The translations under genes and the position numbers were made by a program. This document shows, one piece after another, positions 8,541 through 39,395 of a DNA stretch of 64,000 nucleotides. The notes beneath the pieces are model-generated. The model saw nothing but the letters and a program-made list of their open reading frames with translations, was not told the DNA's origin and did not search any database. Origin of the DNA: a virus; the IMG/VR virus record IMGVR_UViG_3300031963_000013; one strand, written 5' to 3'. Position 1 is the stretch's first letter. Every line of letters begins with the position of its first letter.

Positions 8541-8765
8541 ATGGCACAACAAACAGCAGTAGAATTTTTAATAAAAGCATTTCAAGGTGCTTATGGAGAT
8601 AAAGTAATAAATGTAGTATCTGTACAAGTTGAACAAGCCAAAGAAATGGAAAAGGAACAGATAATAGATGCTTTTGGTGTTGGTTGTCAAGTTGAATCAA
8701 CAAGACTAATTGGTTATCAAGGTATGGCAGAACAATACTACAACGAAACCTTTAAATCAGAATAA
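8541..8765 (+). CDS. phage hypothetical protein
   Basis: QTAVEFL...QAKEMEKEQIIDAF motif. Confidence 0.7.
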   Translation: MAQQTAVEFLIKAFQGAYGDKVINVVSVQVEQAKEMEKEQIIDAFGVGCQVESTRLIGYQGMAEQYYNETFKSE

Positions 8766-8766
8766 G

Positions 8767-9432
8767 ATGAAAAACATTCACGTATTACCAACAGACAAAC
8801 CAACTGGTATATTTAAATCGGGTGATAATTTACTTTTTTCTATTACGGATAAAGTAAGAACAACCAATGAAGGATTTTACATCTACATCACTTCTGATGA
8901 AGAAATTAAAGAAGGGGATTGGTATTATAATTATAAAACTAATACAATTCAAAGAAGAACTGAAGGTACTAACAATGAATCTTATATAGGATTTAAAAAA
9001 ATCATTCTAACAACAGACCAAGACTTAATTAAAGATGGTGTACAAGCTATTGATGATGAGTTTTTAGAATGGTTTGTTAAGAATCCAAGTTGTGAGAGTG
9101 TTGATGTTGAGAGTAATTACAGAGTAAAATCTGGTACTATTCAAGAACATAATGAAGGTAAAGCAGGTTATGAATATTATGAGTACAAAATAATCATTCC
9201 AAAAGAAGAACCTAAACAAGAAACACTTGAAGAAGCTGAACAAAAAACACCTGATGAGTATTTACAAGTATGTAAATATTGTAGTTCTGAAGAAGTTGCA
9301 AGATGTAAATGGGTAAATGTAAATACAGAAGAAATTTATTCTGCTGATTCAGGAACTAATCTTGAATGGTGTTTTGATTGTAAAAGTGAAACTAATATAA
9401 TAGATAAAAAAGATTATGAAACTAAAATTTAG
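8767..9432 (+). CDS. phage hypothetical protein with C-terminal Zn ribbon
   Basis: MKNIHVLPTDKP...KKIILTTDQDLIKDGVQAIDDEFLEWF; CxxC...CxxC. Confidence 0.75.
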   Translation: MKNIHVLPTDKPTGIFKSGDNLLFSITDKVRTTNEGFYIYITSDEEIKEGDWYYNYKTNTIQRRTEGTNNESYIGFKKIILTTDQDLIKDGVQAIDDEFLEWFVKNPSCESVDVESNYRVKSGTIQEHNEGKAGYEYYEYKIIIPKEEPKQETLEEAEQKTPDEYLQVCKYCSSEEVARCKWVNVNTEEIYSADSGTNLEWCFDCKSETNIIDKKDYETKI

Positions 9433-9631: not shown

Positions 9632-9786
9632 TAAATTATGACAAAAATAGAAATTAAATTAAATGTAGTCGCTGGCTCAACAGAGCATCATAAGTTGATA
9701 GCGTTTTTGCACGACAACCTTTATGAATTTTCGTCAAAGCCCAATGGCACAAAACCCCTTGTTATGTGTCAGTTAATATTATTAAA

Positions 9787-9903
9787 ATGGTAACAATTAA
9801 AACAAAACACGGAGAGTTTAAATACAAAGATTGGCAATGGAACTTGGCTTGGTTACTGGTCTTTTTATGTGGAGTAGCTGTTGGAATTATAGGTGGTCTT
9901 TAA
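9787..9903 (+). CDS. 38-aa membrane peptide (cassette cargo)
   Basis: MVTIKTKHGEFKYKDWQWNLAWLLVFLCGVAVGIIGGL fills the first cassette body. Confidence 0.5.
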   Translation: MVTIKTKHGEFKYKDWQWNLAWLLVFLCGVAVGIIGGL

Positions 9904-10010
9904 TGGCACATAACGCTTGGCGGCTTTGCGAAGTGGGTAGAAAAGGCAGCTTTTGCCAAACCCGTGTTATGCGTTCGGGCGGTATTTGAAAACGAATTAA
10001 ATTTTAAAAT

Positions 10011-10544
10011 ATGAATAGTAAAATAATCAGCTTTGCAATAGAAGCCCACAACAAAGTAAACCACCTGTATGATGGCAAACCTTATTCCGTCCATTTGTCA
10101 ATGGTTGCACATTATGCAGTAAAGTATATTGATGCAATACCTCAACAATGCTGGGGAACTGTATTAAATGCTGCATGGTTACATGATACTATTGAAGATT
10201 GCAGACTTACTTACAATGATGTAAAAGAAGTTGCAGGGTATGAAGTTGCTGAAATCGTTTACGCTTTAACAAACGATAAGGGTAAAAACAGAAAAGAACG
10301 TGCTGGCGAAAATTATTACAAAGGTATTCGTGAAACAGCTTGGGCAAAGTATGTAAAGTTATGTGATAGGCTTGCTAATGTAAAATATTCAGTTGATACC
10401 AATTCTCGAATGTTGGAAGTTTACAGAAAAGAAAATGCAAGTTTTTTAACTGGTTTAATGTCGGGCAGTTCTGATGCCTTAATTTATAAATACCCGTTGG
10501 AAGAATTAGACACATTGCTTTATGGCGTGTCAAAGGTAGCATGA
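10011..10544 (+). CDS. HD-domain small alarmone hydrolase (RelA/SpoT hydrolase, Mesh1-like)
   Basis: FA..AH, PY..H, AAWLHDTIED, VKLCDRLAN motifs. Confidence 0.85.
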   Translation: MNSKIISFAIEAHNKVNHLYDGKPYSVHLSMVAHYAVKYIDAIPQQCWGTVLNAAWLHDTIEDCRLTYNDVKEVAGYEVAEIVYALTNDKGKNRKERAGENYYKGIRETAWAKYVKLCDRLANVKYSVDTNSRMLEVYRKENASFLTGLMSGSSDALIYKYPLEELDTLLYGVSKVA

Positions 10545-10607
10545 CCACCAACGTGGTAGCATTGTTTTTGTGCTGATATTTTTTAACTAAAAACTCAATT
10601 ACTTAAT

Positions 10608-10982
10608 ATGGATAATAGCAATTCAAAACTTGAAGGTACTTCCGAAAGCCAGCATAAGAACAATGCAATGTTACCTGCCGTTTCTGATATGGAGTATATT
10701 TTATGTGCAGCAATTTGGTTTGATGATGGTGAGCAATATGAGCATCAGCCTAAAAATATTACTACTGGGCTTGTTTTTTGCGGCTATAGACACGGATGTA
10801 TTTTTCAGCAGATAGGTGGCACGATGGGAGAAAGGAAACAGCTCGGTATTTATGAAAAGGAGCAGGGCTTTTTGACGAATAGAAATCGTTTTGTTGATAG
10901 AGAAGAGGCCGCAAAAATTGCATTACAGGCGAACCAAATTGCAGAACCATTACTTAGGCTATTCAGCGAGGATTTATACTAA
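10608..10982 (+). CDS. phage hypothetical protein (cassette cargo)
   Basis: ILCAAIWF...CGYRH...QGFLT...RFVDREEA...LFSEDLY. Confidence 0.75.
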   Translation: MDNSNSKLEGTSESQHKNNAMLPAVSDMEYILCAAIWFDDGEQYEHQPKNITTGLVFCGYRHGCIFQQIGGTMGERKQLGIYEKEQGFLTNRNRFVDREEAAKIALQANQIAEPLLRLFSEDLY

Positions 10983-11099
10983 TGTTCGCAATGGCAGTGT
11001 AACGTCAGGTATTTGTGAAGGCGGCACGAATACCCTTTAAATTAACCGCAAGTGTCCAGCCGCTTGCACAAATACCCTTGTTATAGGGCGTTTATTATT

Positions 11100-11414
11100 A
11101 TGTCAGGAGGAAGATTTGATTATACACAATATCACATCAACACTATTGCGGATAGTATTGAAAGTGAATTAGAACGTCAGGGCAAAGAAAAGCCTAAAGA
11201 CGAATTGTATTTTGATAAGGAATACTTAGAAAAATACCCAGAAGAAAAGTATTACTATATTCATCCATTAGAGGTGCAAAATGAAATGCGAAAAGCTATC
11301 AAAATACTTCGTCAGGCTTCAGTCTATGCCCAACGAGTTGATTGGTATTTGTCTGGGGATGATGGAGATGAAAACTTCTTAAAGCGTTTGAAGGCTGAAT
11401 TAAATGCCCTATAA
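11100..11414 (+). CDS. phage hypothetical protein (cassette cargo)
   Basis: MSGGRFDY...AQRVDWYLSGDDG; probable start ATG 11100. Confidence 0.75.
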   Translation: MSGGRFDYTQYHINTIADSIESELERQGKEKPKDELYFDKEYLEKYPEEKYYYIHPLEVQNEMRKAIKILRQASVYAQRVDWYLSGDDGDENFLKRLKAELNAL

Positions 11415-11482
11415 CGGATAGGTATTACTGCCGCCTGTGAATTGGCAGTGCAACAGTATTTAACAATTAAACAGTTTACAAT

Positions 11483-11695
11483 ATGCAAAACAGTACAGAA
11501 AAGAACGTCAGCACAGGTGGAAGTAATACCAATGTTATACGCCGTTTGTCACGATGGCTAAAAATTAGAATGTTAAAGACAAAGATGTATAACCTTGATT
11601 GCGATATGATGTTTTTTGCAATCCCGTTTTCGCAGTATGAAAAAGAAATGGAAGCGTACCAAAATGAATTAGAGTGCTTGTCAAATGGCGTATAA
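11483..11695 (+). CDS. hypothetical protein (cassette cargo)
   Basis: Starts inside hairpin 4 and stops at the TAAC boundary. Confidence 0.55.
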   Translation: MQNSTEKNVSTGGSNTNVIRRLSRWLKIRMLKTKMYNLDCDMMFFAIPFSQYEKEMEAYQNELECLSNGV

Positions 11696-11771
11696 CGTTT
11701 TGCAGGTTGCTTTAGTGGCGACCTTAACAGATAAACTTGATTAGAATTACAAACTTTAAATAAACAAAGAT

Positions 11772-11975
11772 ATGTCAAAAGAAAACGAAACTAAGCCATT
11801 GAAGCAACCTGATGTTAGCAGTAGTGCGGATTACGAGGGATTTTACACTCATTTAAAAGAGTATGAAGAAAATGGAATATCCACAAGTTTTAAAGACTTG
11901 GTAAGGTTGGCAAAACAATACAATTGTGAAATACCAAAAGTGGTAGATGGAAAACTTGTGTTTAAAACGATATAG
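11772..11975 (+). CDS. hypothetical protein (cassette cargo)
   Basis: Starts inside hairpin 5. Confidence 0.6.
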   Translation: MSKENETKPLKQPDVSSSADYEGFYTHLKEYEENGISTSFKDLVRLAKQYNCEIPKVVDGKLVFKTI

Positions 11976-11988
11976 CATTACTAATAAT

Positions 11989-12070
11989 GCCCCGTTGGTG
12001 AAATTGGTAGACACACCAGACTTAGGATCTGGTGCCGAAAGGTGTGAGAGTTCGAGTCTCTCATGGGGCA
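11989..12070 (+). tRNA. tRNA-Leu(UAG)
   Basis: GCCCCGT/ATGGGGC acceptor, CCAGA-CTTAGGA-TCTGG, variable arm, GAGAG-TTCGAGT-CTCTC. Confidence 0.95.
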
Positions 12071-12092
12071 CAAAACTTTAAATAAACACAAT

Positions 12093-14376: not shown

Positions 14377-15045
14377 ATGAAAGACAATTTTAACTTAACC
14401 GGGTTCTTGAAAGGGAACAAATTACTGAACGAAAACATAGGTGGATACGTAGACATTAAACCCGTAAACGAAGAAATGGGTACAGCTATGGAAGATCTTA
14501 AAAAGCCTTCTAAAGTGTACACAGACGATTGGGTACGTTCAGCTATAGAGAGCAAGTTGGGATCTTGGACGTTTGACTACGATTATATGAGCGGAGTTTA
14601 CATGTGGACCCACGACGATATAGATCCTGAAGACCTTGTTGTGTACGCGACTCCGGGTTTTGACGGAGAAGAAGGCATCGCTGGAGAGGTTAATTTGGGA
14701 TTCGGAGATAGAGTGGTAGACCAAGAAGTTTTTGGAGATGCGTCTTACCCCGATTTTGAATCTTACGCGGCAGCTGTGAAGCCCTATTTGGATAAGGTCG
14801 AAGACAAATACAACGACGGCGAATACGCAGAAGATATAGAATCAACGTACAAACGTGGTGTTAGTTTAAAAAGAGAAGAGATCGGTACAGCTATGGAAGA
14901 AGACGATACGGAGGATTTCGGTACTACAGACGATCGAATTATGGGATTGGGCGGAGACAGACTATTGGCTGCAGCTCAGTTTCTTATTGACGATGGTTTC
15001 GAGCTCGAAGATCTTATGGACTTCTTGCGCAACAAACTTGCATAA
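14377..15045 (+). CDS. acidic putative internal head protein
   Basis: Paralogous N-terminus; internal EE.GTAME repeat. Confidence 0.6.
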   Translation: MKDNFNLTGFLKGNKLLNENIGGYVDIKPVNEEMGTAMEDLKKPSKVYTDDWVRSAIESKLGSWTFDYDYMSGVYMWTHDDIDPEDLVVYATPGFDGEEGIAGEVNLGFGDRVVDQEVFGDASYPDFESYAAAVKPYLDKVEDKYNDGEYAEDIESTYKRGVSLKREEIGTAMEEDDTEDFGTTDDRIMGLGGDRLLAAAQFLIDDGFELEDLMDFLRNKLA

Positions 15046-17192: not shown

Positions 17193-18374
17193 ATGGACAA
17201 AAAAGCAATGAACAACGTCAAGTACCTAAAGATGACCAAGTACTACGACGAATTTTTGAAGTACTTTAGAATGGCCACTGTACAACAGGCCGAGTGCAAT
17301 TTAGGTAAGATCAGACACTGCGACTCAAGCGTAGAGGACGATCTGATGAAGCACGTTGAGCTGTACGATGTGGTCGAAAGAAAATACGCAGGATTCTCCC
17401 AGATTGTCAACGACTGCTTCTACGGTTTCACAGAGGACCATCCGTATTGGGACAAGATGAAGGACGGTATCATGTCAAAGCAGCGCGAAATCATATCTAA
17501 GAACTGGACTGGTAAACGCAATGTGTTTGGAGTGCGAGAGTGGATGTACCTTTTCTTGTTTCACCGTTTAACAGGCTCCGCTATCAACTATTCGATGAAG
17601 CCTTCAGGGTACCACAATACGCTTCTGTTCGATATGCACAAAGCCGACAACATACCGCAAATGGTACAGATCATTCAGCAAGCGATCAGACCGTTTTATA
17701 CGTCTATAGGTTACCAGTTCCCAAGCTTTCCTAAGCCCAAAGGCAGATACAAGCGTGGAGGAGACTACTTCCTTTGCGAATACGTACCGCAGTTGGCCGA
17801 GGACCTTACGAGGTTTTTAGAGCAGGGAGAAAAGAAAGACTTGCGTGAAGTAGGCGACTTCATGTTTAAGTGGAACAAAGACAGGGACCTCAGAGCTTTC
17901 AAATTCCAGTACGCCGCTGTTATCGCTGATATTGCCGATTGGTTCCCTGAGTTTGTGAACAGAGAGAGCCCGTTCTACTACGGCACAAACGCTATCGAAT
18001 GCATCGAGTATCTTGCTACCAAGTCTATCAAGATGCCAAAAGAGGACTTCTTAGACGCAGTAATGATGAAGATATACGAAGACACAGGTAGCTACCCGTA
18101 CAACGCAGAGGACGTTGCGTGCGATAGCATACGTTGGATCGAGAACTACGTTAAGCCTGGTGCAGACTACGATCACTTGGACTTCGACCACGTTTGGAAC
18201 AGTTCGAGCATTAAAGATCACCCTTACGGAAGACAAAAAGCTATGTTAGACCTTGGGTTGGTACCGAGTTTCAATGGTATCACCGAACATCCGTCAGACG
18301 ACAAAGTTATCAAGTCTTTAAATATGACAGAAGAACAATACAAACAACGAGTAAAAGAATACTACGGACTATGA
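17193..18374 (+). CDS. putative amino acid:DNA transferase (aGPT-PPlase-like, HhH fold)
   Basis: FQYAAVIADIAD, YYGTNA and AEDVACDSIRW resemble family motifs. Confidence 0.5.
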   Translation: MDKKAMNNVKYLKMTKYYDEFLKYFRMATVQQAECNLGKIRHCDSSVEDDLMKHVELYDVVERKYAGFSQIVNDCFYGFTEDHPYWDKMKDGIMSKQREIISKNWTGKRNVFGVREWMYLFLFHRLTGSAINYSMKPSGYHNTLLFDMHKADNIPQMVQIIQQAIRPFYTSIGYQFPSFPKPKGRYKRGGDYFLCEYVPQLAEDLTRFLEQGEKKDLREVGDFMFKWNKDRDLRAFKFQYAAVIADIADWFPEFVNRESPFYYGTNAIECIEYLATKSIKMPKEDFLDAVMMKIYEDTGSYPYNAEDVACDSIRWIENYVKPGADYDHLDFDHVWNSSSIKDHPYGRQKAMLDLGLVPSFNGITEHPSDDKVIKSLNMTEEQYKQRVKEYYGL

Positions 18375-18559
18375 GCAATACAGAAACAAAAAAAGACAGA
18401 GTAGAGATCTCTGAACTGGTTGAATTCTATTACCAAGCTGGAGATGATTACCAACTCTGGGATGAAACGGAAAGCGGGCCTTATCCGATAGACCGCATGC
18501 TAACAGCTTTTAAAAACTTTCTAAACCAATACAACCATGGCCAACATAATATACAATAA
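18371..18559 (+). CDS. hypothetical protein
   Basis: Overlaps both neighbours. Confidence 0.55.
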   Translation: MSNTETKKDRVEISELVEFYYQAGDDYQLWDETESGPYPIDRMLTAFKNFLNQYNHGQHNIQ

Positions 18560-19532
18560 CACGTGCGAAGTACCCTTTAAGGGAAAGAAACCGCAAAGAT
18601 CATGGATGAAGGATTGGACCGAAGAGGAACGCATAGACAAGTTCTTCGAGTTCTGTCACAAGTTCGACGACAGACAGGACGATCTACTAAAAAATGAGTA
18701 CCAGATATTCTCCCACCGCCTACACTGGCACGAACACCCGTACTGCGAGTACATGAAAGAGATAGTAAGTAACAAAGCGAGACTGTTCTATACGCTTGTG
18801 TTCTCCTTTACTAACGAACACTGGGGCACATTTATGAAGCTTTATGACGGGGGTATAGAAGCAACAAGAGAACACTTCAAAGAGAACAGACACGCTCGCA
18901 ACGACCTGTTTCAGATATATTACCCTAAGGGTACAAACGTAAAAGAGTGGGTGTTGGAAGGACCCAAGCAAGCAGCTGAAGATCTGTATCACGTGTTGGA
19001 CGAAGTAGAAAGGGGAGTAAGACCCAAGTTCACGATGATGGGCTTTGCTAAACTGTTAGAGTCGTATTTCAAAGAACACCAGAAGTTCAGAAGCCCGCTT
19101 TACCCCTGTAAGAACACGGCCAGATATGTAGCGATGTCTTACCCGCACTTGGTCGATCCAGAGTCGATACTATTTGGAGGTACTGGCCACTTCGACGGAC
19201 TTCACCAGATATTCGATGGTCAGAACTTAAACGGTAAAGTTAAGTACAGCGTAAACTCAGCGGGAGAATTTATACCAGAAAACAAACAGGCGCACGAGTG
19301 GTTGAGACAGATGAAAGTGCTGGTTGAACACCCTAAGAACCCTATGGTGTCACAAAAGTACTTGAATGTAGAAGATAAAACTTGCTTTTTTTGGAAGCAC
19401 ATAGCAATATCTCACGGAGAAAAGCGTCCTACTAAAAATATTCCTTACACTTGGATATTCAATGATAAGTTCAATTTAGGTAATAGACCCGAATTCTTAG
19501 AAGGCATTAAAGATAGGTGTCTAATGTATTAA
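18537..19532 (+). CDS. second putative aGPT-PPlase-like protein
   Basis: GGTGHFDGLHQIF and NVEDKTCFFWKH motifs. Confidence 0.45.
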   Translation: MANIIYNNTCEVPFKGKKPQRSWMKDWTEEERIDKFFEFCHKFDDRQDDLLKNEYQIFSHRLHWHEHPYCEYMKEIVSNKARLFYTLVFSFTNEHWGTFMKLYDGGIEATREHFKENRHARNDLFQIYYPKGTNVKEWVLEGPKQAAEDLYHVLDEVERGVRPKFTMMGFAKLLESYFKEHQKFRSPLYPCKNTARYVAMSYPHLVDPESILFGGTGHFDGLHQIFDGQNLNGKVKYSVNSAGEFIPENKQAHEWLRQMKVLVEHPKNPMVSQKYLNVEDKTCFFWKHIAISHGEKRPTKNIPYTWIFNDKFNLGNRPEFLEGIKDRCLMY

Positions 19533-19555
19533 TTGAATATTTATTAAAAACTCTT

Positions 19556-20107
19556 ATGATAAAGTTAACTAACTTAGTAAACGAGGCTTATGGATCTACA
19601 AAGTTAAGCGCTGATATAGAAAACTGGGCAAATAGTAAAGGATTAAACTTTAAAAAGCTGTCTGCAAAAAAATCCCCTGGTAATTACGGAGCGAGCATAT
19701 CGAATACATTTTTACAAGTCGGTGACAAATATGTATTAGTGAGATACGAAACAGTACCAGGAGCACCAAGATTGAATCAGTTACGGTTTTTCATTTTAGA
19801 TAAACCAGATCTATCAGCTAAAGTATTAGCGAGCGCTGATTATGTTGAAGATTTTGGATACGTACAATCTGCGTTAGAAAAAGCTATATCTGCTAGTGGT
19901 AAAGAAGCCGAAAATTGGAACGTAAAATCAAAGCTTGACAAATTCATAAGAGACTTATCAAAAGATAAAAAATACAATAAGTTCTCCGACGCACAAGCTG
20001 GTGATATGGCACAGTCTATATTAGACGACAACGAAGGCCTCGAAAGAGCAATTCAACAAATATATAAAGTGAGTGATGCCGCAGGATGGTTAGCGGATAG
20101 ACTATAG
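19556..20107 (+). CDS. putative head-cargo protein
   Basis: Late motif at 19537; MIKLTNLVNE leader; probable start ATG 19556. Confidence 0.6.
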   Translation: MIKLTNLVNEAYGSTKLSADIENWANSKGLNFKKLSAKKSPGNYGASISNTFLQVGDKYVLVRYETVPGAPRLNQLRFFILDKPDLSAKVLASADYVEDFGYVQSALEKAISASGKEAENWNVKSKLDKFIRDLSKDKKYNKFSDAQAGDMAQSILDDNEGLERAIQQIYKVSDAAGWLADRL

Positions 20108-20180
20108 TCACCAAAAAATTTAAGTATTGGAAACCAATCAGTTATAACCAATTGATAACCAATGCGCCCAAGACACACCA

Positions 20181-20204
20181 GGAGCTCACCAGAGCTCCTT
20201 TTTT
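20181..20204 (+). terminator. hairpin terminator, identical copy at 22591-22614
   Basis: GGAGCTC-ACCA-GAGCTCC-TTTTTT. Confidence 0.75.
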
Positions 20205-20379
20205 AGGGCCTATACGTTATCCTATCCCAATAAACACATTCGAATTGGGAGTTACGGGTGAGTATTTGGGAGAGTCTGTGTTTTTTGGATAGCAAAGCAT
20301 ATTTATTGACGGAATGGTTATAGTGTTAATTGCATTGTAGCCATTTTTTTTGTAACAACTCATCGTAAACCTCTAACCT

Positions 20380-20652
20380 ATGAAAAACTTTTTATCCAAC
20401 CTGTTCAGAGATGGCAATGACATCAATGAAAAATCTGTAATTGGTTTTGCGTCCTTTCTAATGATGATAATATTTGCTGTAGTAGATATAATTACAGGGT
20501 ACATGGGCAAACAGCTCTTGATTAACGATTTTATTTTCAATTCATTTTTGATTATGACTTTAGGCGCTTTTGGTATAGCGTCTGTAGACAAGTTTATCAA
20601 TACAAAATACCAAAATAAAACCGAAGAAACACCACAAGAAGAAAACCTATAA
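20380..20652 (+). CDS. holin-like membrane protein
   Basis: Two TM segments, first gene of the endolysin operon. Confidence 0.6.
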   Translation: MKNFLSNLFRDGNDINEKSVIGFASFLMMIIFAVVDIITGYMGKQLLINDFIFNSFLIMTLGAFGIASVDKFINTKYQNKTEETPQEENL

Positions 20653-31403: not shown

Positions 31404-33260
31404 TTAGAAGCTAACCACTCTTCCTTGTATGTCTGTGTCTAAGTATTTAACTTCAAACACAGAAGGATCCAAAGAAGGATAAATTATACCGTTTACCAAA
31501 CCTGCGTTTATGTCGTATACGTACTTAGAGTACCCGTTTGAAACCCCAGATTTGTTAACTATTTCTACGCTTTTCACAGTTTGTACGCCCTCTACAGTAT
31601 CCAAAAGCGTGTAAACGTCGCTAAGAACTATAGGTTCGTTTATTTGCCAATTGCTTATGTTAAAAAAGTCCTTTAGCACTGTTAAGCACCTTGCTATTAC
31701 GTCTGTGCCAGTGTAATTGGGCCTTATGATCACATCGAAATTGCAACCTATGTTTATAACGTACCCAGGTTTTAGGTTTATAGCGTCTGTCATCATTCTG
31801 TATTCAGACAGATACGTTTGAACGTTTTTCAATAACGCTTCGCTTGGCTCCGCAAGGTGACCGTTTGAGTCCAATCCCAAAAGGTACATGCTAACAAGCG
31901 TTTGGTTCTTGTTTGTGTAATCCGAGCTATAGTAGTTTGCAAAAGTAGTATCGTCCTTTGTTACGTAGGCTTTTGATATTTTGCCGTACTTGGAAGGCAT
32001 TTCCATCACCTTTACCAAATAGTCCTGTTGTGTTACAGCTCTTGTTTGACTTGCAAAAGAAGCCTGTATGTTTTGTCTTAGTTCGTCTATCGTGTCTCCG
32101 TCTCCGCCCCCTGTTGCTGGTTCTGCGTTGTTTACTGCTACTGTGTTGCTAAAGCTTGTATTGACGCCCGTTGTAACTACAGAACTTGGAACGGTTAGTT
32201 CGTTTGCTCCAACGTTGTAGGAAGCTCCACCGCCTGCTAAATAAGATATCGTTATAGTTGTGTTAGACGGAGAAAGTCCGTAAGTTTTTGTGGTAACGTA
32301 GTTGGTGGGATCAAAAGCGGTGTTTATAGTGTTAGATCCGCTAGTCAAACCAACGCCAACCGTACTAGGGTTTGGTATTACAACAGTATCAGCAACGCTG
32401 TTAATGCCTGGACCGAATTCTATCACCAGGTTGTCGTTGCTGGTAAATCTAGTTGTAAACCTTCTATCCACTTTAACCTTTTCAAGTATGTAAGGAACCT
32501 GATCGGAGTACTGTGCCAAGTCCGGGTAATTCGCGGCTGTGTTTGCAACTGGATTGTAAATGAAGTCTTGCGCCAAGTAGGGAACTTCGTACCATTTGTT
32601 ACCTGAGGAGTCTACAGCGCTAACAACGCCAACTATCTCTATGTCGCTTATTGTTACAGTTTGAAACCTTTGCGCCGAACCAAACGTGAATGCTTGACTC
32701 TTGATTTGTCCTGATATAGCGTTTGCTTTCTTCTTTAAAAGGTACTGGGTCGGAGAACCGTCACCAGCTGTGGTATAAACTGTTATCTCTGTTTCATCGA
32801 AAGAAGAAGAAGTTCTAAAATCAATTTTTTCGGGAACGTAGAAGTTCACAGAGCTGTTTATGGACGAATTAACAACCATTCCGGGTTGTATAACCAAAGA
32901 GTAATCAAAATCAGGGTACTTTAAACTACCGCTCGTTTTAGCTGGAATTACCTGGTACACGTCAAGTCCTGCTATTGCGGCAGAAACAGTTTTGGGCCTG
33001 TAACCCATTGTGTAGGCTAGAGCGAAAAGGTTGTTTTTCTGTTTAGCGTATTGAACGTAAGTTTCTTGCAATTGGTTGTCCAAGTAAAAAGATAGGACGT
33101 CGCCAACGTAAGACGCCATGTTTATGAACATGCTGCCTGGACTGGCTTGTGTAAAGTCGTTATACACAGTTGGGAAATAGGACTTAGCGTACTCTATCAA
33201 ATCTGTTTTAAAAGTTGCAAAGTCCTTATTCAGATATTTTATATCAGGCTTTTTAGTCAT
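31404..33260 (-). CDS. baseplate wedge subunit (T4 gp6-like)
   Basis: YLNKDF, SYVGDVLSFY.D, LAY.MGY.P, GGGD.D, Q.RAVT.QDY. Confidence 0.9.
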   Translation of the reverse strand: MTKKPDIKYLNKDFATFKTDLIEYAKSYFPTVYNDFTQASPGSMFINMASYVGDVLSFYLDNQLQETYVQYAKQKNNLFALAYTMGYRPKTVSAAIAGLDVYQVIPAKTSGSLKYPDFDYSLVIQPGMVVNSSINSSVNFYVPEKIDFRTSSSFDETEITVYTTAGDGSPTQYLLKKKANAISGQIKSQAFTFGSAQRFQTVTISDIEIVGVVSAVDSSGNKWYEVPYLAQDFIYNPVANTAANYPDLAQYSDQVPYILEKVKVDRRFTTRFTSNDNLVIEFGPGINSVADTVVIPNPSTVGVGLTSGSNTINTAFDPTNYVTTKTYGLSPSNTTITISYLAGGGASYNVGANELTVPSSVVTTGVNTSFSNTVAVNNAEPATGGGDGDTIDELRQNIQASFASQTRAVTQQDYLVKVMEMPSKYGKISKAYVTKDDTTFANYYSSDYTNKNQTLVSMYLLGLDSNGHLAEPSEALLKNVQTYLSEYRMMTDAINLKPGYVINIGCNFDVIIRPNYTGTDVIARCLTVLKDFFNISNWQINEPIVLSDVYTLLDTVEGVQTVKSVEIVNKSGVSNGYSKYVYDINAGLVNGIIYPSLDPSVFEVKYLDTDIQGRVVSF

Positions 33261-37717: not shown

Positions 37718-38464
37718 TCAATACTCCATTTCTTGTAGATATTCATTTAAAACGACCTTATACACTGTCTTTAACTTTTTTATCACCCTTGTTATAGTAT
37801 TGGTTTGAACATCTACCATCTCTTTTACGTAAATGTATATCAGCTTTTTATTTGATAGGTCCAAAGTTTTCCTTCTTTCGAATATCTGAATGATCGCCGT
37901 TGCCGCTTTCAGATCGTTGGGAGATTGAAACATGTCGAATACTTCCAAATTCAATTTTTTTATGTACTTGTCAAAAAGCTTTTCGATATCAACGTCAGAA
38001 TTAAAATCAGTGTAAATCAAAGAATTGATAGTTCTTTCTTCGTTGTCGATCTCTTGTATTTCTGCTTTAGCTACCTTTGACTTGTAGTTGTTTTTGTTGT
38101 AATTGATCAAATACCTCTTTACGGCAGTGCCAAAATACGAATACGCCTTTCCATTTTCTTCTTTGTACAGATGGAGTTTTTGCAACAAAAAAGATATCAC
38201 TTCGTACTTTAGATCTTCTATAGAGTCAGTGTCTAAGTGATAGAATTTGAAAGAGTGTATTATGTTTTCTACCAATTTATAGAAAGCATAGTGTATCTTT
38301 TCGTTGTATATCCTATTCCTTTCTGCAAGATCCTCGGTGATTCTATACTCTAAAATCGCTTTTTGGGTATCTTCTGTGAAATAGTTGTTGTTCTTCTTCG
38401 GTTTTCTTTTTCTAACGGTACCTTTTTTTGTAAAAAGCAAATCGTTTTCTTTAATTTCAGTCAT
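37718..38464 (-). CDS. phage late sigma factor (T4 gp55-like)
   Basis: NYF....QKAILEY, KLVENII, KAYSYFGT..KRYLI region-2-like motifs. Confidence 0.7.
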   Translation of the reverse strand: MTEIKENDLLFTKKGTVRKRKPKKNNNYFTEDTQKAILEYRITEDLAERNRIYNEKIHYAFYKLVENIIHSFKFYHLDTDSIEDLKYEVISFLLQKLHLYKEENGKAYSYFGTAVKRYLINYNKNNYKSKVAKAEIQEIDNEERTINSLIYTDFNSDVDIEKLFDKYIKKLNLEVFDMFQSPNDLKAATAIIQIFERRKTLDLSNKKLIYIYVKEMVDVQTNTITRVIKKLKTVYKVVLNEYLQEMEY

Positions 38465-38741: not shown

Positions 38742-39395
38742 TTAATTTTGAGTTTCTACCCGACTCGCCATTAGGTCCGCTTGGTGTAATATGAATGTTA
38801 GATTTGATTTTATTTCGAATTCGTGGTTGTACGTTACGTAGTAGGCTTTGTTACCCTCTTCGTAAAGGCCATCGTGCAACTTTATTGCCAAGTACTCCCT
38901 TTCGTTAACCGCAATACCAGCCTGCTGTAAGTAAAACAGACTTCTGTCAGCGATTCTCATATGAGGAATGTTTGAGTTGTATTTGTAAAGCAAACCTTGT
39001 TTTTCTATCTTCCACGCGTCGTCAACCGGTAAATAGAAGGGTTGTTCGTTTGTACCAAGTTTTCCTAGATCGTGATTGATGGCGCAAAACACAAGTTCTT
39101 CTACAGTGTAATCCTTTTTTTGATTGAATCTGTCCCAAACTTTATCCAAAACTAATGCAGCTTCAACCACTCTGATAACGTGATCAACGTAACCGCCAAT
39201 AAAGCAATTGTGATGAAACACTTTTGAAGACGCTGGTGCTGTCACCAGAGTCAGCTCTATGCTTTTGTAGAAATCTAAGAGATCGTCCTTACGCTTACTA
39301 GAGATGTATTTATCTATTAATTGGTAAAACCTATCTAAGTTGTCTTGTAGCTGTTGCTCGCTAAGCGTTTTTGTTTTGTGTAATGTGTTATGCAT
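38742..39395 (-). CDS. HD-domain phosphohydrolase
   Basis: APAS...HH....GG..DH, NHDLGK, HDG, HQAD; probable start 39395. Confidence 0.85.
   Translation of the reverse strand: MHNTLHKTKTLSEQQLQDNLDRFYQLIDKYISSKRKDDLLDFYKSIELTLVTAPASSKVFHHNCFIGGYVDHVIRVVEAALVLDKVWDRFNQKKDYTVEELVFCAINHDLGKLGTNEQPFYLPVDDAWKIEKQGLLYKYNSNIPHMRIADRSLFYLQQAGIAVNEREYLAIKLHDGLYEEGNKAYYVTYNHEFEIKSNLTFILHQADLMASRVETQN

Follow-up and report, generated by a model that had tools for sequence, protein, structure and literature searches.

We analysed a window of 64,000 nucleotides (nt) of viral DNA (IMG/VR record IMGVR_UViG_3300031963_000013) in which positions 9743-11988 carry five hairpin sites of the AAC...GTT type on the + strand together with six one-gene units. 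Comparison with related phages makes it highly probable that this stretch is a row of six integron-like gene cassettes lacking a recombinase of their own, in other words a phage version of the integron. A sequence-only reading of the same DNA had already proposed an attC-type cassette array carried by a phage, and this proposal is supported by covariance models of the site family, by the linkage of such sites to a recombinase gene in other phages and by a footprint in the cassette flanks. Two of its details, namely the position of the crossover and the gene to which each hairpin belongs, had to be corrected, as had the type of enzyme.

Structure and family of the hairpin sites

All five hairpins were found within 1 nt of where the sequence-only reading had put them, with arms as it had quoted them. 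A structural scan of both strands of the 64 kb indicated that strong sites are confined to the array stretch, where four hairpins of the + strand (sites 2 to 5, at 10550-10672, 11001-11082, 11413-11536 and 11694-11816) have stems of 17-22 nt and loops of 33-75 nt. Their folding on this strand was indeed better than that of shuffled sequences (z -3.1 for site 2, -2.7 for site 3, -3.7 for site 4 and -2.95 for site 5), whereas the - strand of the same four sites folded less well (z -0.7 to -2.5, as against -2.7 to -3.7), and the mismatches in the window stems are nearly all G.T when read on the + strand. The folding of site 1 (9912-9968) was not above that of shuffles (z +0.7), yet it was recognised by the family models described below, and it looks like a site minus its loop.

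Two covariance models, R1 for a class of about 85 nt and R2 for a class of about 120 nt, were trained on recombinase-linked arrays of other phages and contained no window sequence. R2 matched site 5 (E 3.2e-17), site 4 (8.5e-12), site 2 (8e-10), site 3 (1.3e-4) and site 1 (6.9e-4), while R1 matched site 3 (E 0.0018), site 1 (E 0.006) and site 5 (E 0.03). The sequence-only reading had suggested running a covariance model on both strands; with these phage-site models, the whole 64 kb yielded no match below E 0.1 beyond the five sites. Judged by these matches, the window sites are members of a recombinase-linked phage site family, whose consensus boxes (ATTGCnnATAAC-G...T-GTTATnnGCAGT) are present in them. 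This family, assembled as 314 non-redundant sites, falls into three length classes of about 45, 85 and 120 nt; its sites span 45-125 nt with variable loops, and their consensus reads ATTGCnnAT-AAC-GGTTG...T-GTT-ATnnGCAGT, in which a T.G pair is fixed at position 8 to the left and right of the core. Alignment of the ~85-nt class revealed compensatory changes at 12 of 19 pairs, and conserved G.U pairs that exist on the + strand only. The hallmark of attC sites, i.e., an imperfect hairpin of variable sequence and conserved structure with an AAC/GTT R-box core, is displayed by the window sites. In the ~120-nt class, the loop contains an A/T-rich leader and a start codon, and the 3' arm is coding; at two homologous sites (L004, position 6848, and L048, position 13487), the encoded N-terminus has been kept while the arms covary.

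Arm subfamilies (for example GGGTGTATGAGAAGG and GGCTTGGCGAAGTGG) recur within this family across contigs with different cargo, and window sites 3 and 4 have the arm motif GGTATT...GCCGCC in common (11019-11034 and 11421-11436). In the ~85-nt class (for example window 11025-11042 and L004:5349-5432), the sequence that ends the 3' arm is found again at the start of the loop, so that the 5' arm could pair with either copy and adopt an alternative fold.

Other identities were considered for these hairpins. Rfam held no family for them, its weak matches to TPP (thiamine pyrophosphate) and microRNA families being noise, and a hammerhead or other ribozyme, brought up by a CUGA/GAAA look-alike in site 2, was dropped after this result. 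Remnants of tRNA genes were set aside in view of the lack of a tRNA-like fold, ARAGORN giving just four true tRNAs. Palindromic insertions, whether of the miniature inverted-repeat transposable element type or of the IS200/IS605 type, were rejected on the grounds that complementarity spans the gene and not the site, and that the linked enzyme is a tyrosine recombinase and not an HUH enzyme. A search of GenBank phages with the array DNA returned tRNA matches only, and an exact 41-mer from the array was absent from IMG/VR.

Recombinase linkage and cassette exchange in related phages

Relatives were gathered with the neighbouring thymidylate synthase and a 240-amino-acid (aa) protein as queries, and several of them hold arrays of the same site type, with up to a dozen sites in a row. 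In contig 3300032291_003678, the array leads directly into an open reading frame (ORF) of 267 aa; when the family of this recombinase was used as query, at least 109 uncultured viral contigs of IMG/VR were found, many of them exceeding 100 kb, and 80 loci were kept. Where 3 kb or more of upstream DNA was available, which was so at 49 loci, some of them near-identical, every locus had at least two + strand sites within 3 kb upstream of the recombinase gene. Sites number 0.80 per kb upstream of this gene vs. 0.06 per kb downstream of it, the distance from the end of the last site to the gene is 79-974 nt, and the longest arrays comprise 18 sites. At L188, a second array of at least seven family sites (18251-20581) occurs about 7.5 kb downstream of the recombinase gene, besides the upstream array, so that one contig can hold two arrays.

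The arrays of these relatives end in a particular manner: a normal left box (X') and its AAC are followed by no hairpin but by TATTATATATA (TAT(T/A/C)ATATATA), and this X'-AAC-TATTATATATA is separated from the recombinase ATG by a constant 42/43 or 51/52 nt. A search pattern for AAC-TATTATATATA found it at 56 of 66 non-redundant loci; inspection by eye revealed a close variant in most of the ten that the pattern had missed. From its motif and location, we take this end site to be the counterpart of attI.

The 267-aa enzyme carries a Phage_integrase domain (PF00589, E 5e-34) preceded by a SAM_4 N-terminal domain (PF13495), and its R-K-H-R-H-Y catalytic set is complete. Its best NCBIfam matches are XerA, IntI, XerC and XerD, each below cut-off, and its best match among solved structures is a Pyrococcus XerC-like (XerA-type) recombinase (E 4e-30). 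On the integron-integrase model TIGR02249, the relatives' enzyme reaches 143-156 bits, for a cut-off of 265, with a match in two stretches; facing IntI4 (2a3v), residues 174-207 of the query (34 residues) stand opposite residues 176-257 of the integrase (82 residues), so that about 48 residues are absent. Because this IntI-specific insertion is missing, the linked enzyme is classified by its sequence as a Xer/IntI-type tyrosine recombinase and not as an IntI. The integrase that the sequence-only reading had supposed to be encoded elsewhere thus has a match in the tyrosine recombinase adjoining the relatives' arrays, but not in the IntI form that it had in mind.

Among cultured phages, the closest recombinases are those of Cellulophaga phage Ingeline (39% identity) and Polaribacter phage Freya (34%). 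A structural scan of both revealed no arrays and one good site, in Freya_10 (L241, 900-1023), which is an intergenic, 124-nt site of the family type upstream of the 34% identical integrase. Among the ten Freya genomes, length varies by up to 4.9 kb and the position of the integrase by up to about 4.1 kb; these two values being similar, most of the difference would lie upstream of the integrase. A search of possible hosts, also suggested in the sequence-only reading, retrieved recombinases 38-45% identical in Flavobacterium genomes with family-type sites nearby, but in a layout that differs from the phage one. In the isolates F. sp. W21_SRS_FM7, F. frigoris PS1 and F. degerlachei (L262:9592-14310, L263:10224-12341 and L265:12306-16691; recombinase 38-40% identical), the sites are indeed on the opposite strand and downstream of the recombinase. 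Relatives of the recombinase at 35-41% identity also occur in assemblies of Woesearchaeota, Methanosarcinales and Patescibacteria (L276-L293, L266, L268 and L274), for which the structural scan lists only L282 with at least three sites.

The cassettes of the family bear the footprint of recombination at the core. In 262 cassettes, the flank after GTT and the flank before the next AAC pair at a mean of 9.4 of 16 positions, whereas the two flanks of one site pair at a mean of 5.86 of 16 and random pairs at 5.87. Complementarity thus extends across the cassette and not across the site, as expected from core recombination between different sites; palindromic insertion would not give it. Mismatches in the complementary flanks comprise 86 G.T or T.G vs. 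26 A.C or C.A.

Single cassettes have been exchanged between relatives at the AAC core. Positions 6583-6897 of L187 and 2131-2445 of L229 are 100% identical over 315 nt with unrelated neighbours on both sides, the identity beginning in ATAACG and ending after the next ...TAACG. Likewise, L223 and L233 (97.6%, 422 nt) and L172 and L229 (93%) share a cassette between unrelated arrays with breaks at the AAC core, and breakpoints falling exactly at AAC in related phages were what the sequence-only reading had asked to be looked for. In all such pairs, the upstream hairpin is conserved with the gene (76-100%), whereas the downstream hairpin is not (31-69%); the mobile unit therefore extends from one AAC to the next and comprises a hairpin with the gene downstream of it. 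The hairpin had initially been assigned to the upstream gene, an idea overturned by this pattern of conservation and by the breakpoints. Comparison accordingly places the crossover on the + strand, in the AAC(G) core at the hairpin's 5' side, and not at G^TT as earlier assumed, which equals the classical polarity read on the - strand. By comparison only, what is seen is a 5'-AAC-3' crossover on the best-folding strand, with cassette ends derived from one site.

Parts of the window array are also encountered in other settings. One metagenome contig has the body of unit D between hairpins other than those of the window, its loose ends (11079 and 11417) beginning exactly at GTT and after AACGG, and a hairpin about 90% like site 5 stands in a different context in another metagenome contig. 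Homologues of the window cassette genes occur both as cassettes (L006, L176 and L191) and as ordinary unflanked genes in other phages, which suggests that the cargo comes from a common phage gene pool.

In mechanistic terms, and by analogy with integrons, a cassette would read on the + strand as (AA)C-G, hairpin, GTT, end box, one gene, complementary end box and AA(C), with the attC-like hairpin at the 5' end of the gene and, in the ~120-nt class, the start codon in its loop. The + strand would fold so that AAC pairs with GTT in an R-box-like stem with a conserved G.T pair and a bulge of 3-4 nt on the 5' side, and within its 5'-AAC-3' core this folded single strand would be cut and exchanged by the linked recombinase, in the way that IntI treats the bottom strand of attC. 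Excised cassettes would be circular and would insert into the end site or into another hairpin, and such an exchange via circles would leave the two ends of each cassette complementary. For this phage, the enzyme would have to be supplied by another part of the genome, by a co-infecting phage or by the host; failing that, the array would now only be inherited.

The array in the window and its present state

All the features of the array lie on the + strand. Its far end is a hairpin-less junction at 9743-9770 (AATGGCACAAAAC-CCCTT-GTTATGTGTC), made up of a left and a right box with a 5-nt spacer, which received no score from either family covariance model; the half-site formerly noticed near 9770 has its box there, as a part of this two-box junction. 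The body of unit A (9761-9914, from GTT to AAC) contains an ORF for a hydrophobic protein of 38 aa (9787-9903), and its ends are complementary over 16 nt (9761/9899-9914, 81%). Site 1, decayed and 57 nt long, has arms like those of the GGCTTGGCGAAGTGG...TTTTGCCAAACCC subfamily and no loop. It is followed by unit B (body 9966-10552) with an HD-domain phosphohydrolase gene at 10011-10544 (phrog_990, E 1e-30, and Pfam HD_4), the ends of which are not complementary, as the sequence-only reading had remarked. Site 2 (123 nt) has a 17-bp stem and a 74-nt loop with an ATG at 10608, where the ORF of unit C starts (10608-10982, phrog_839 family; body 10670-11003); the ends of this unit pair with one extra base (10670/10990-11003, by eye), and its homologue in L006 is likewise located between sites, with end boxes that covary with those of the window.

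Site 3 (82 nt) belongs to the short, ~85-nt class, with an 18-bp stem and a loop without start codon. The body of unit D (11080-11415) contains ORF 11100-11414 (phrog_6724 family), and 14 of 15 positions at its ends are complementary, with one T.G pair (11080/11401-11415, 15 nt, 93%). Site 4 (124 nt, arms of 22 nt) has an ATG at 11483 in its loop, from which the 70-aa ORF of unit E (11483-11695; body 11534-11696) runs to a TAA stop codon within the ATAAC core; an inverted repeat of 21 nt (11531/11679-11699, 86%) marks the ends of this unit. Site 5 (123 nt, 17-bp stem) similarly has an ATG at 11772 in its loop, the start of the 67-aa ORF of unit F (11772-11975; body 11814-11988), which finishes with a decayed terminal box (GCATTACTAATAAT, AAT for AAC) whose pairing with the other end amounts to 10 of 14 positions in Watson-Crick terms and 12 of 14 with G.T (11814/11975-11988, by eye). 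The ORFs of units E and F matched no family in PHROG/Pfam-type searches. The complementary cassette ends that the sequence-only reading had described, including the decay of the last, were thus recovered by inverted-repeat search and by eye. Unit F abuts tRNA-Leu (anticodon tag, 11989-12071), right before which the array stops as that reading had stated; this is the near end of the array, a place taken in relatives by the attI-like site and the recombinase gene. Small early-type genes and tRNAs surround the array. Outside it, at 9093-9235 within ORF 8710-9432, metagenomes contain many alternative joints skipping 73-114 nt, at a depth far above that of the array, which points to a repeated or block-shuffled segment common to other genomes.

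Searches for a recombinase and an end site covered the 64-kb window of the phage genome. No tyrosine recombinase was detected in it, either by tblastn or when the ORFs of all six frames were compared with a profile built from 128 relatives (best E 0.14), in agreement with the sequence-only reading, and no attI-like motif was found throughout its length. Where the arrays of the family end at AAC-TATTATATATA and the 267-aa recombinase, this one presents a decayed box and then tRNA-Leu. With five sites in 2.2 kb and no integron-integrase in 64 kb, the window is therefore comparable to clusters of attC sites lacking integron-integrases (CALINs), defined by at least two attC sites close together and no such enzyme nearby, the sites being called here by the family covariance models and not by bacterial attC models. 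As its sequence stands, the array would need a recombinase in trans, or else be a relic.

Several findings weigh against the interpretation of these units as an integron-like system. The absence of recombinase and end site is the first of them. The array is, moreover, near-identical in 20 metagenome runs from 15 studies between 2017 and 2025 (freshwater, some labelled 'fungus'), and metagenome contigs show no joints inside it, although contigs cannot reveal rare excision, and the single raw-read run covered contained no more of the phage than its tRNA genes. Decay is evident in site 1, at the ends of unit B and in the last box. Both hairpins around unit D differ elsewhere, contrary to what exchange of plain AAC-to-AAC units would give. 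Recognition of attC is held to require the IntI insertion, which is missing from the linked enzyme. Finally, P12002L_attC1, from Polaribacter phage P12002L, was the sole tested site without a verified IntI1 recombination junction in the study of Qi et al. (2023; PMC9892861), and its primer sequence shows the pattern of the family's ~45-nt class.

The absences, the decay and the near-identity are what would be expected of a fossil, i.e., an array that owes its construction to the recombinase system of an ancestral or donor phage, and that has since lost the enzyme and the end site (tRNA genes being there now) and been inherited without movement. We hold this to be unlikely, yet to be reckoned with. 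Sites 2-5 are intact, with the full consensus and strong stems, while unit D and the site-5-like hairpin occur in other contexts in the same water samples. Supply in trans is also possible, since related recombinases are common in co-occurring phages and more distant ones are found in Flavobacterium. The shuffling put forward in the sequence-only reading is seen in the relatives, which exchange single cassettes at the AAC core; in the window array, continued exchange would depend on an enzyme supplied in trans.

A very unlikely alternative is that the hairpins are RNA elements of early transcripts, the genes being shuffled by homologous or microhomology recombination at the common boxes, as with the promoter early stem-loops (PeSL) of T4-type phages, and the recombinase being unrelated. 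Two features already described speak for such elements and add to the points raised above: G.U pairs are conserved only on the gene-sense strand, which folds better, and the loops of the ~120-nt class have a leader and a start codon next to a coding 3' arm. The arrays also lie amid small early-type genes and tRNAs, and PeSL-mediated shuffling is documented (PMC2839356, PMC4122927). However, an RNA role leaves unexplained why cassette ends are complementary and site flanks are not, as well as the invariant linkage to a tyrosine recombinase and the end site at fixed distance. Different sites share just about 5-12 nt and differ in their arms, which makes them a poor substrate for homologous recombination, and the breaks map to a 5-nt core. 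An RNA role could nevertheless coexist with the DNA role of integron-like sites that we propose. Finally, although the enzyme resembles Xer proteins most and has no IntI insertion, and although each gene lies between inverted boxes as in the Acinetobacter pdif modules (PMC7399989), it is most improbable that the units are dif-module-like and recombine as duplex at double-stranded Xer/dif-type sites with incidental hairpins, as the 14-22 bp stems are kept by compensatory changes and the G.T pairs favour one strand, neither of which duplex sites select, and the sites measure 45-125 nt with variable loops instead of the 28-bp 11-6-11 layout.

Comparison with known systems and significance

As in classical integrons, one-gene cassettes lie here between imperfect hairpins that vary in sequence while structure and the AAC/GTT core are conserved, one strand folds better with the crossover mapping to 5'-AAC-3' on that strand, and the stop codon is often within the core box. 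In attC sites, only the 5'-AAC-3' at the bottom-strand crossover is indeed conserved, and recognition takes place on folded single strands, the bottom one being favoured (PMC4792948). In the relatives, the array runs as in integrons into a hairpin-less platform beside a tyrosine recombinase of the Xer/IntI branch, and along the folding strand the phage order of array, end site and recombinase (in sense) is the bottom-strand order of the integron.

Other properties set the phage system apart. Its 267-aa recombinase is under the integron-integrase cut-off and lacks the ~48 residues of the IntI4-specific insertion. Its cassette genes are on the bottom-equivalent, folding strand and point toward the recombinase; they are therefore inverted with respect to classical cassettes, the hairpin preceding the gene and being able to carry its start codon, and a Pc-type promoter at the platform cannot read them. 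Unlike attC, the sites have a bulge on the 5' side, longer conserved boxes (ATTGCnnATAAC / GTTATnnGCAGT) and a fixed T.G pair, and they form a family of three length classes (~45, 85 and 120 nt) carried by phages. The window, in addition, contains neither an integrase nor an attI-like platform.

CALINs with at least two predicted attC sites have been reported in virulent phages, including Polaribacter phage P12002L; bacterial attC models had served to detect them, and they were taken for pieces of bacterial integrons that the phages had borrowed (PMC9892861). The window resembles them, with five attC-like sites within 2.2 kb, no integrase nearby and a phage as carrier. By contrast with the family described here, the published phage CALINs come with no description of a phage-own recombinase, of an end site or of cassette exchange (PMC9892861). 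Our structural scan of P12002L (L243) found four further family sites, at 14503-14624 (+), 32798-32924 (-), 38036-38089 (-) and 39119-39244 (-); the sites of this phage are scattered and on the gene-sense strand, some of them near DNA methyltransferase genes.

PeSL (PMC2839356, PMC4122927) are comparable in that small accessory genes in variable regions each follow a stem-loop with expression signals and are shuffled between relatives. They differ by their conserved direct repeats and by their homologous recombination, as opposed to hairpins that differ and covary, complementary ends, breaks in a 5-nt core and a linked recombinase. The conserved direct-repeat promoter and stem-loop that define PeSL are not seen here, since the arms and loops of neighbouring sites differ and only boxes of 5-12 nt are common to them.

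Likeness to Xer/dif systems resides in the linked enzyme, both the length and the sequence of which are of the Xer kind. A folded single strand of phage DNA can serve Xer enzymes as a substrate, as in CTX-phage integration. Unlike Xer/dif, however, the phage system involves long hairpins in arrays of up to 18 and a single-gene cargo rather than a whole replicon, and the 28-bp dif layout (11-6-11) is not visible in the site consensus, by which this was judged, no dif-site model having been run.

Integrons, the textbook example of gene capture by single cassettes, are thought to need IntI with its special domain. They are also thought to belong to bacteria (and some archaea), phages borrowing pieces only. 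A large family of phage contigs here shows a full integron architecture around a simpler Xer-like enzyme, with inverted gene polarity, and a full-text literature search found no description of a phage-own recombinase, end site, inverted polarity or cassette exchange. This makes testable the need for the IntI domain in hairpin recombination, the origin of integrons from Xer systems, and the way in which large phages turn over many small genes of unknown function. Integron finders keyed on IntI miss such phage arrays. As for the window, it would be annotated as an array of six cassettes of the mobile type without an enzyme, with an HD phosphohydrolase and members of two phage families whose function is unknown among their genes.

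On a broader scale, we give even chances to the proposal that Bacteroidota phages of freshwater and marine environments run an integron analogue of their own, using a short Xer-like recombinase, folded hairpins and an AAC core, with genes inverted so that the hairpin doubles as an expression leader and with recombinase-less arrays such as the present one serviced in trans, by hosts or co-infecting phages. If true, the extra domain of IntI would not be required for integron-type chemistry and the system would be ancestral or convergent, and these phages would draw on a community-wide pool of swappable early and accessory genes.

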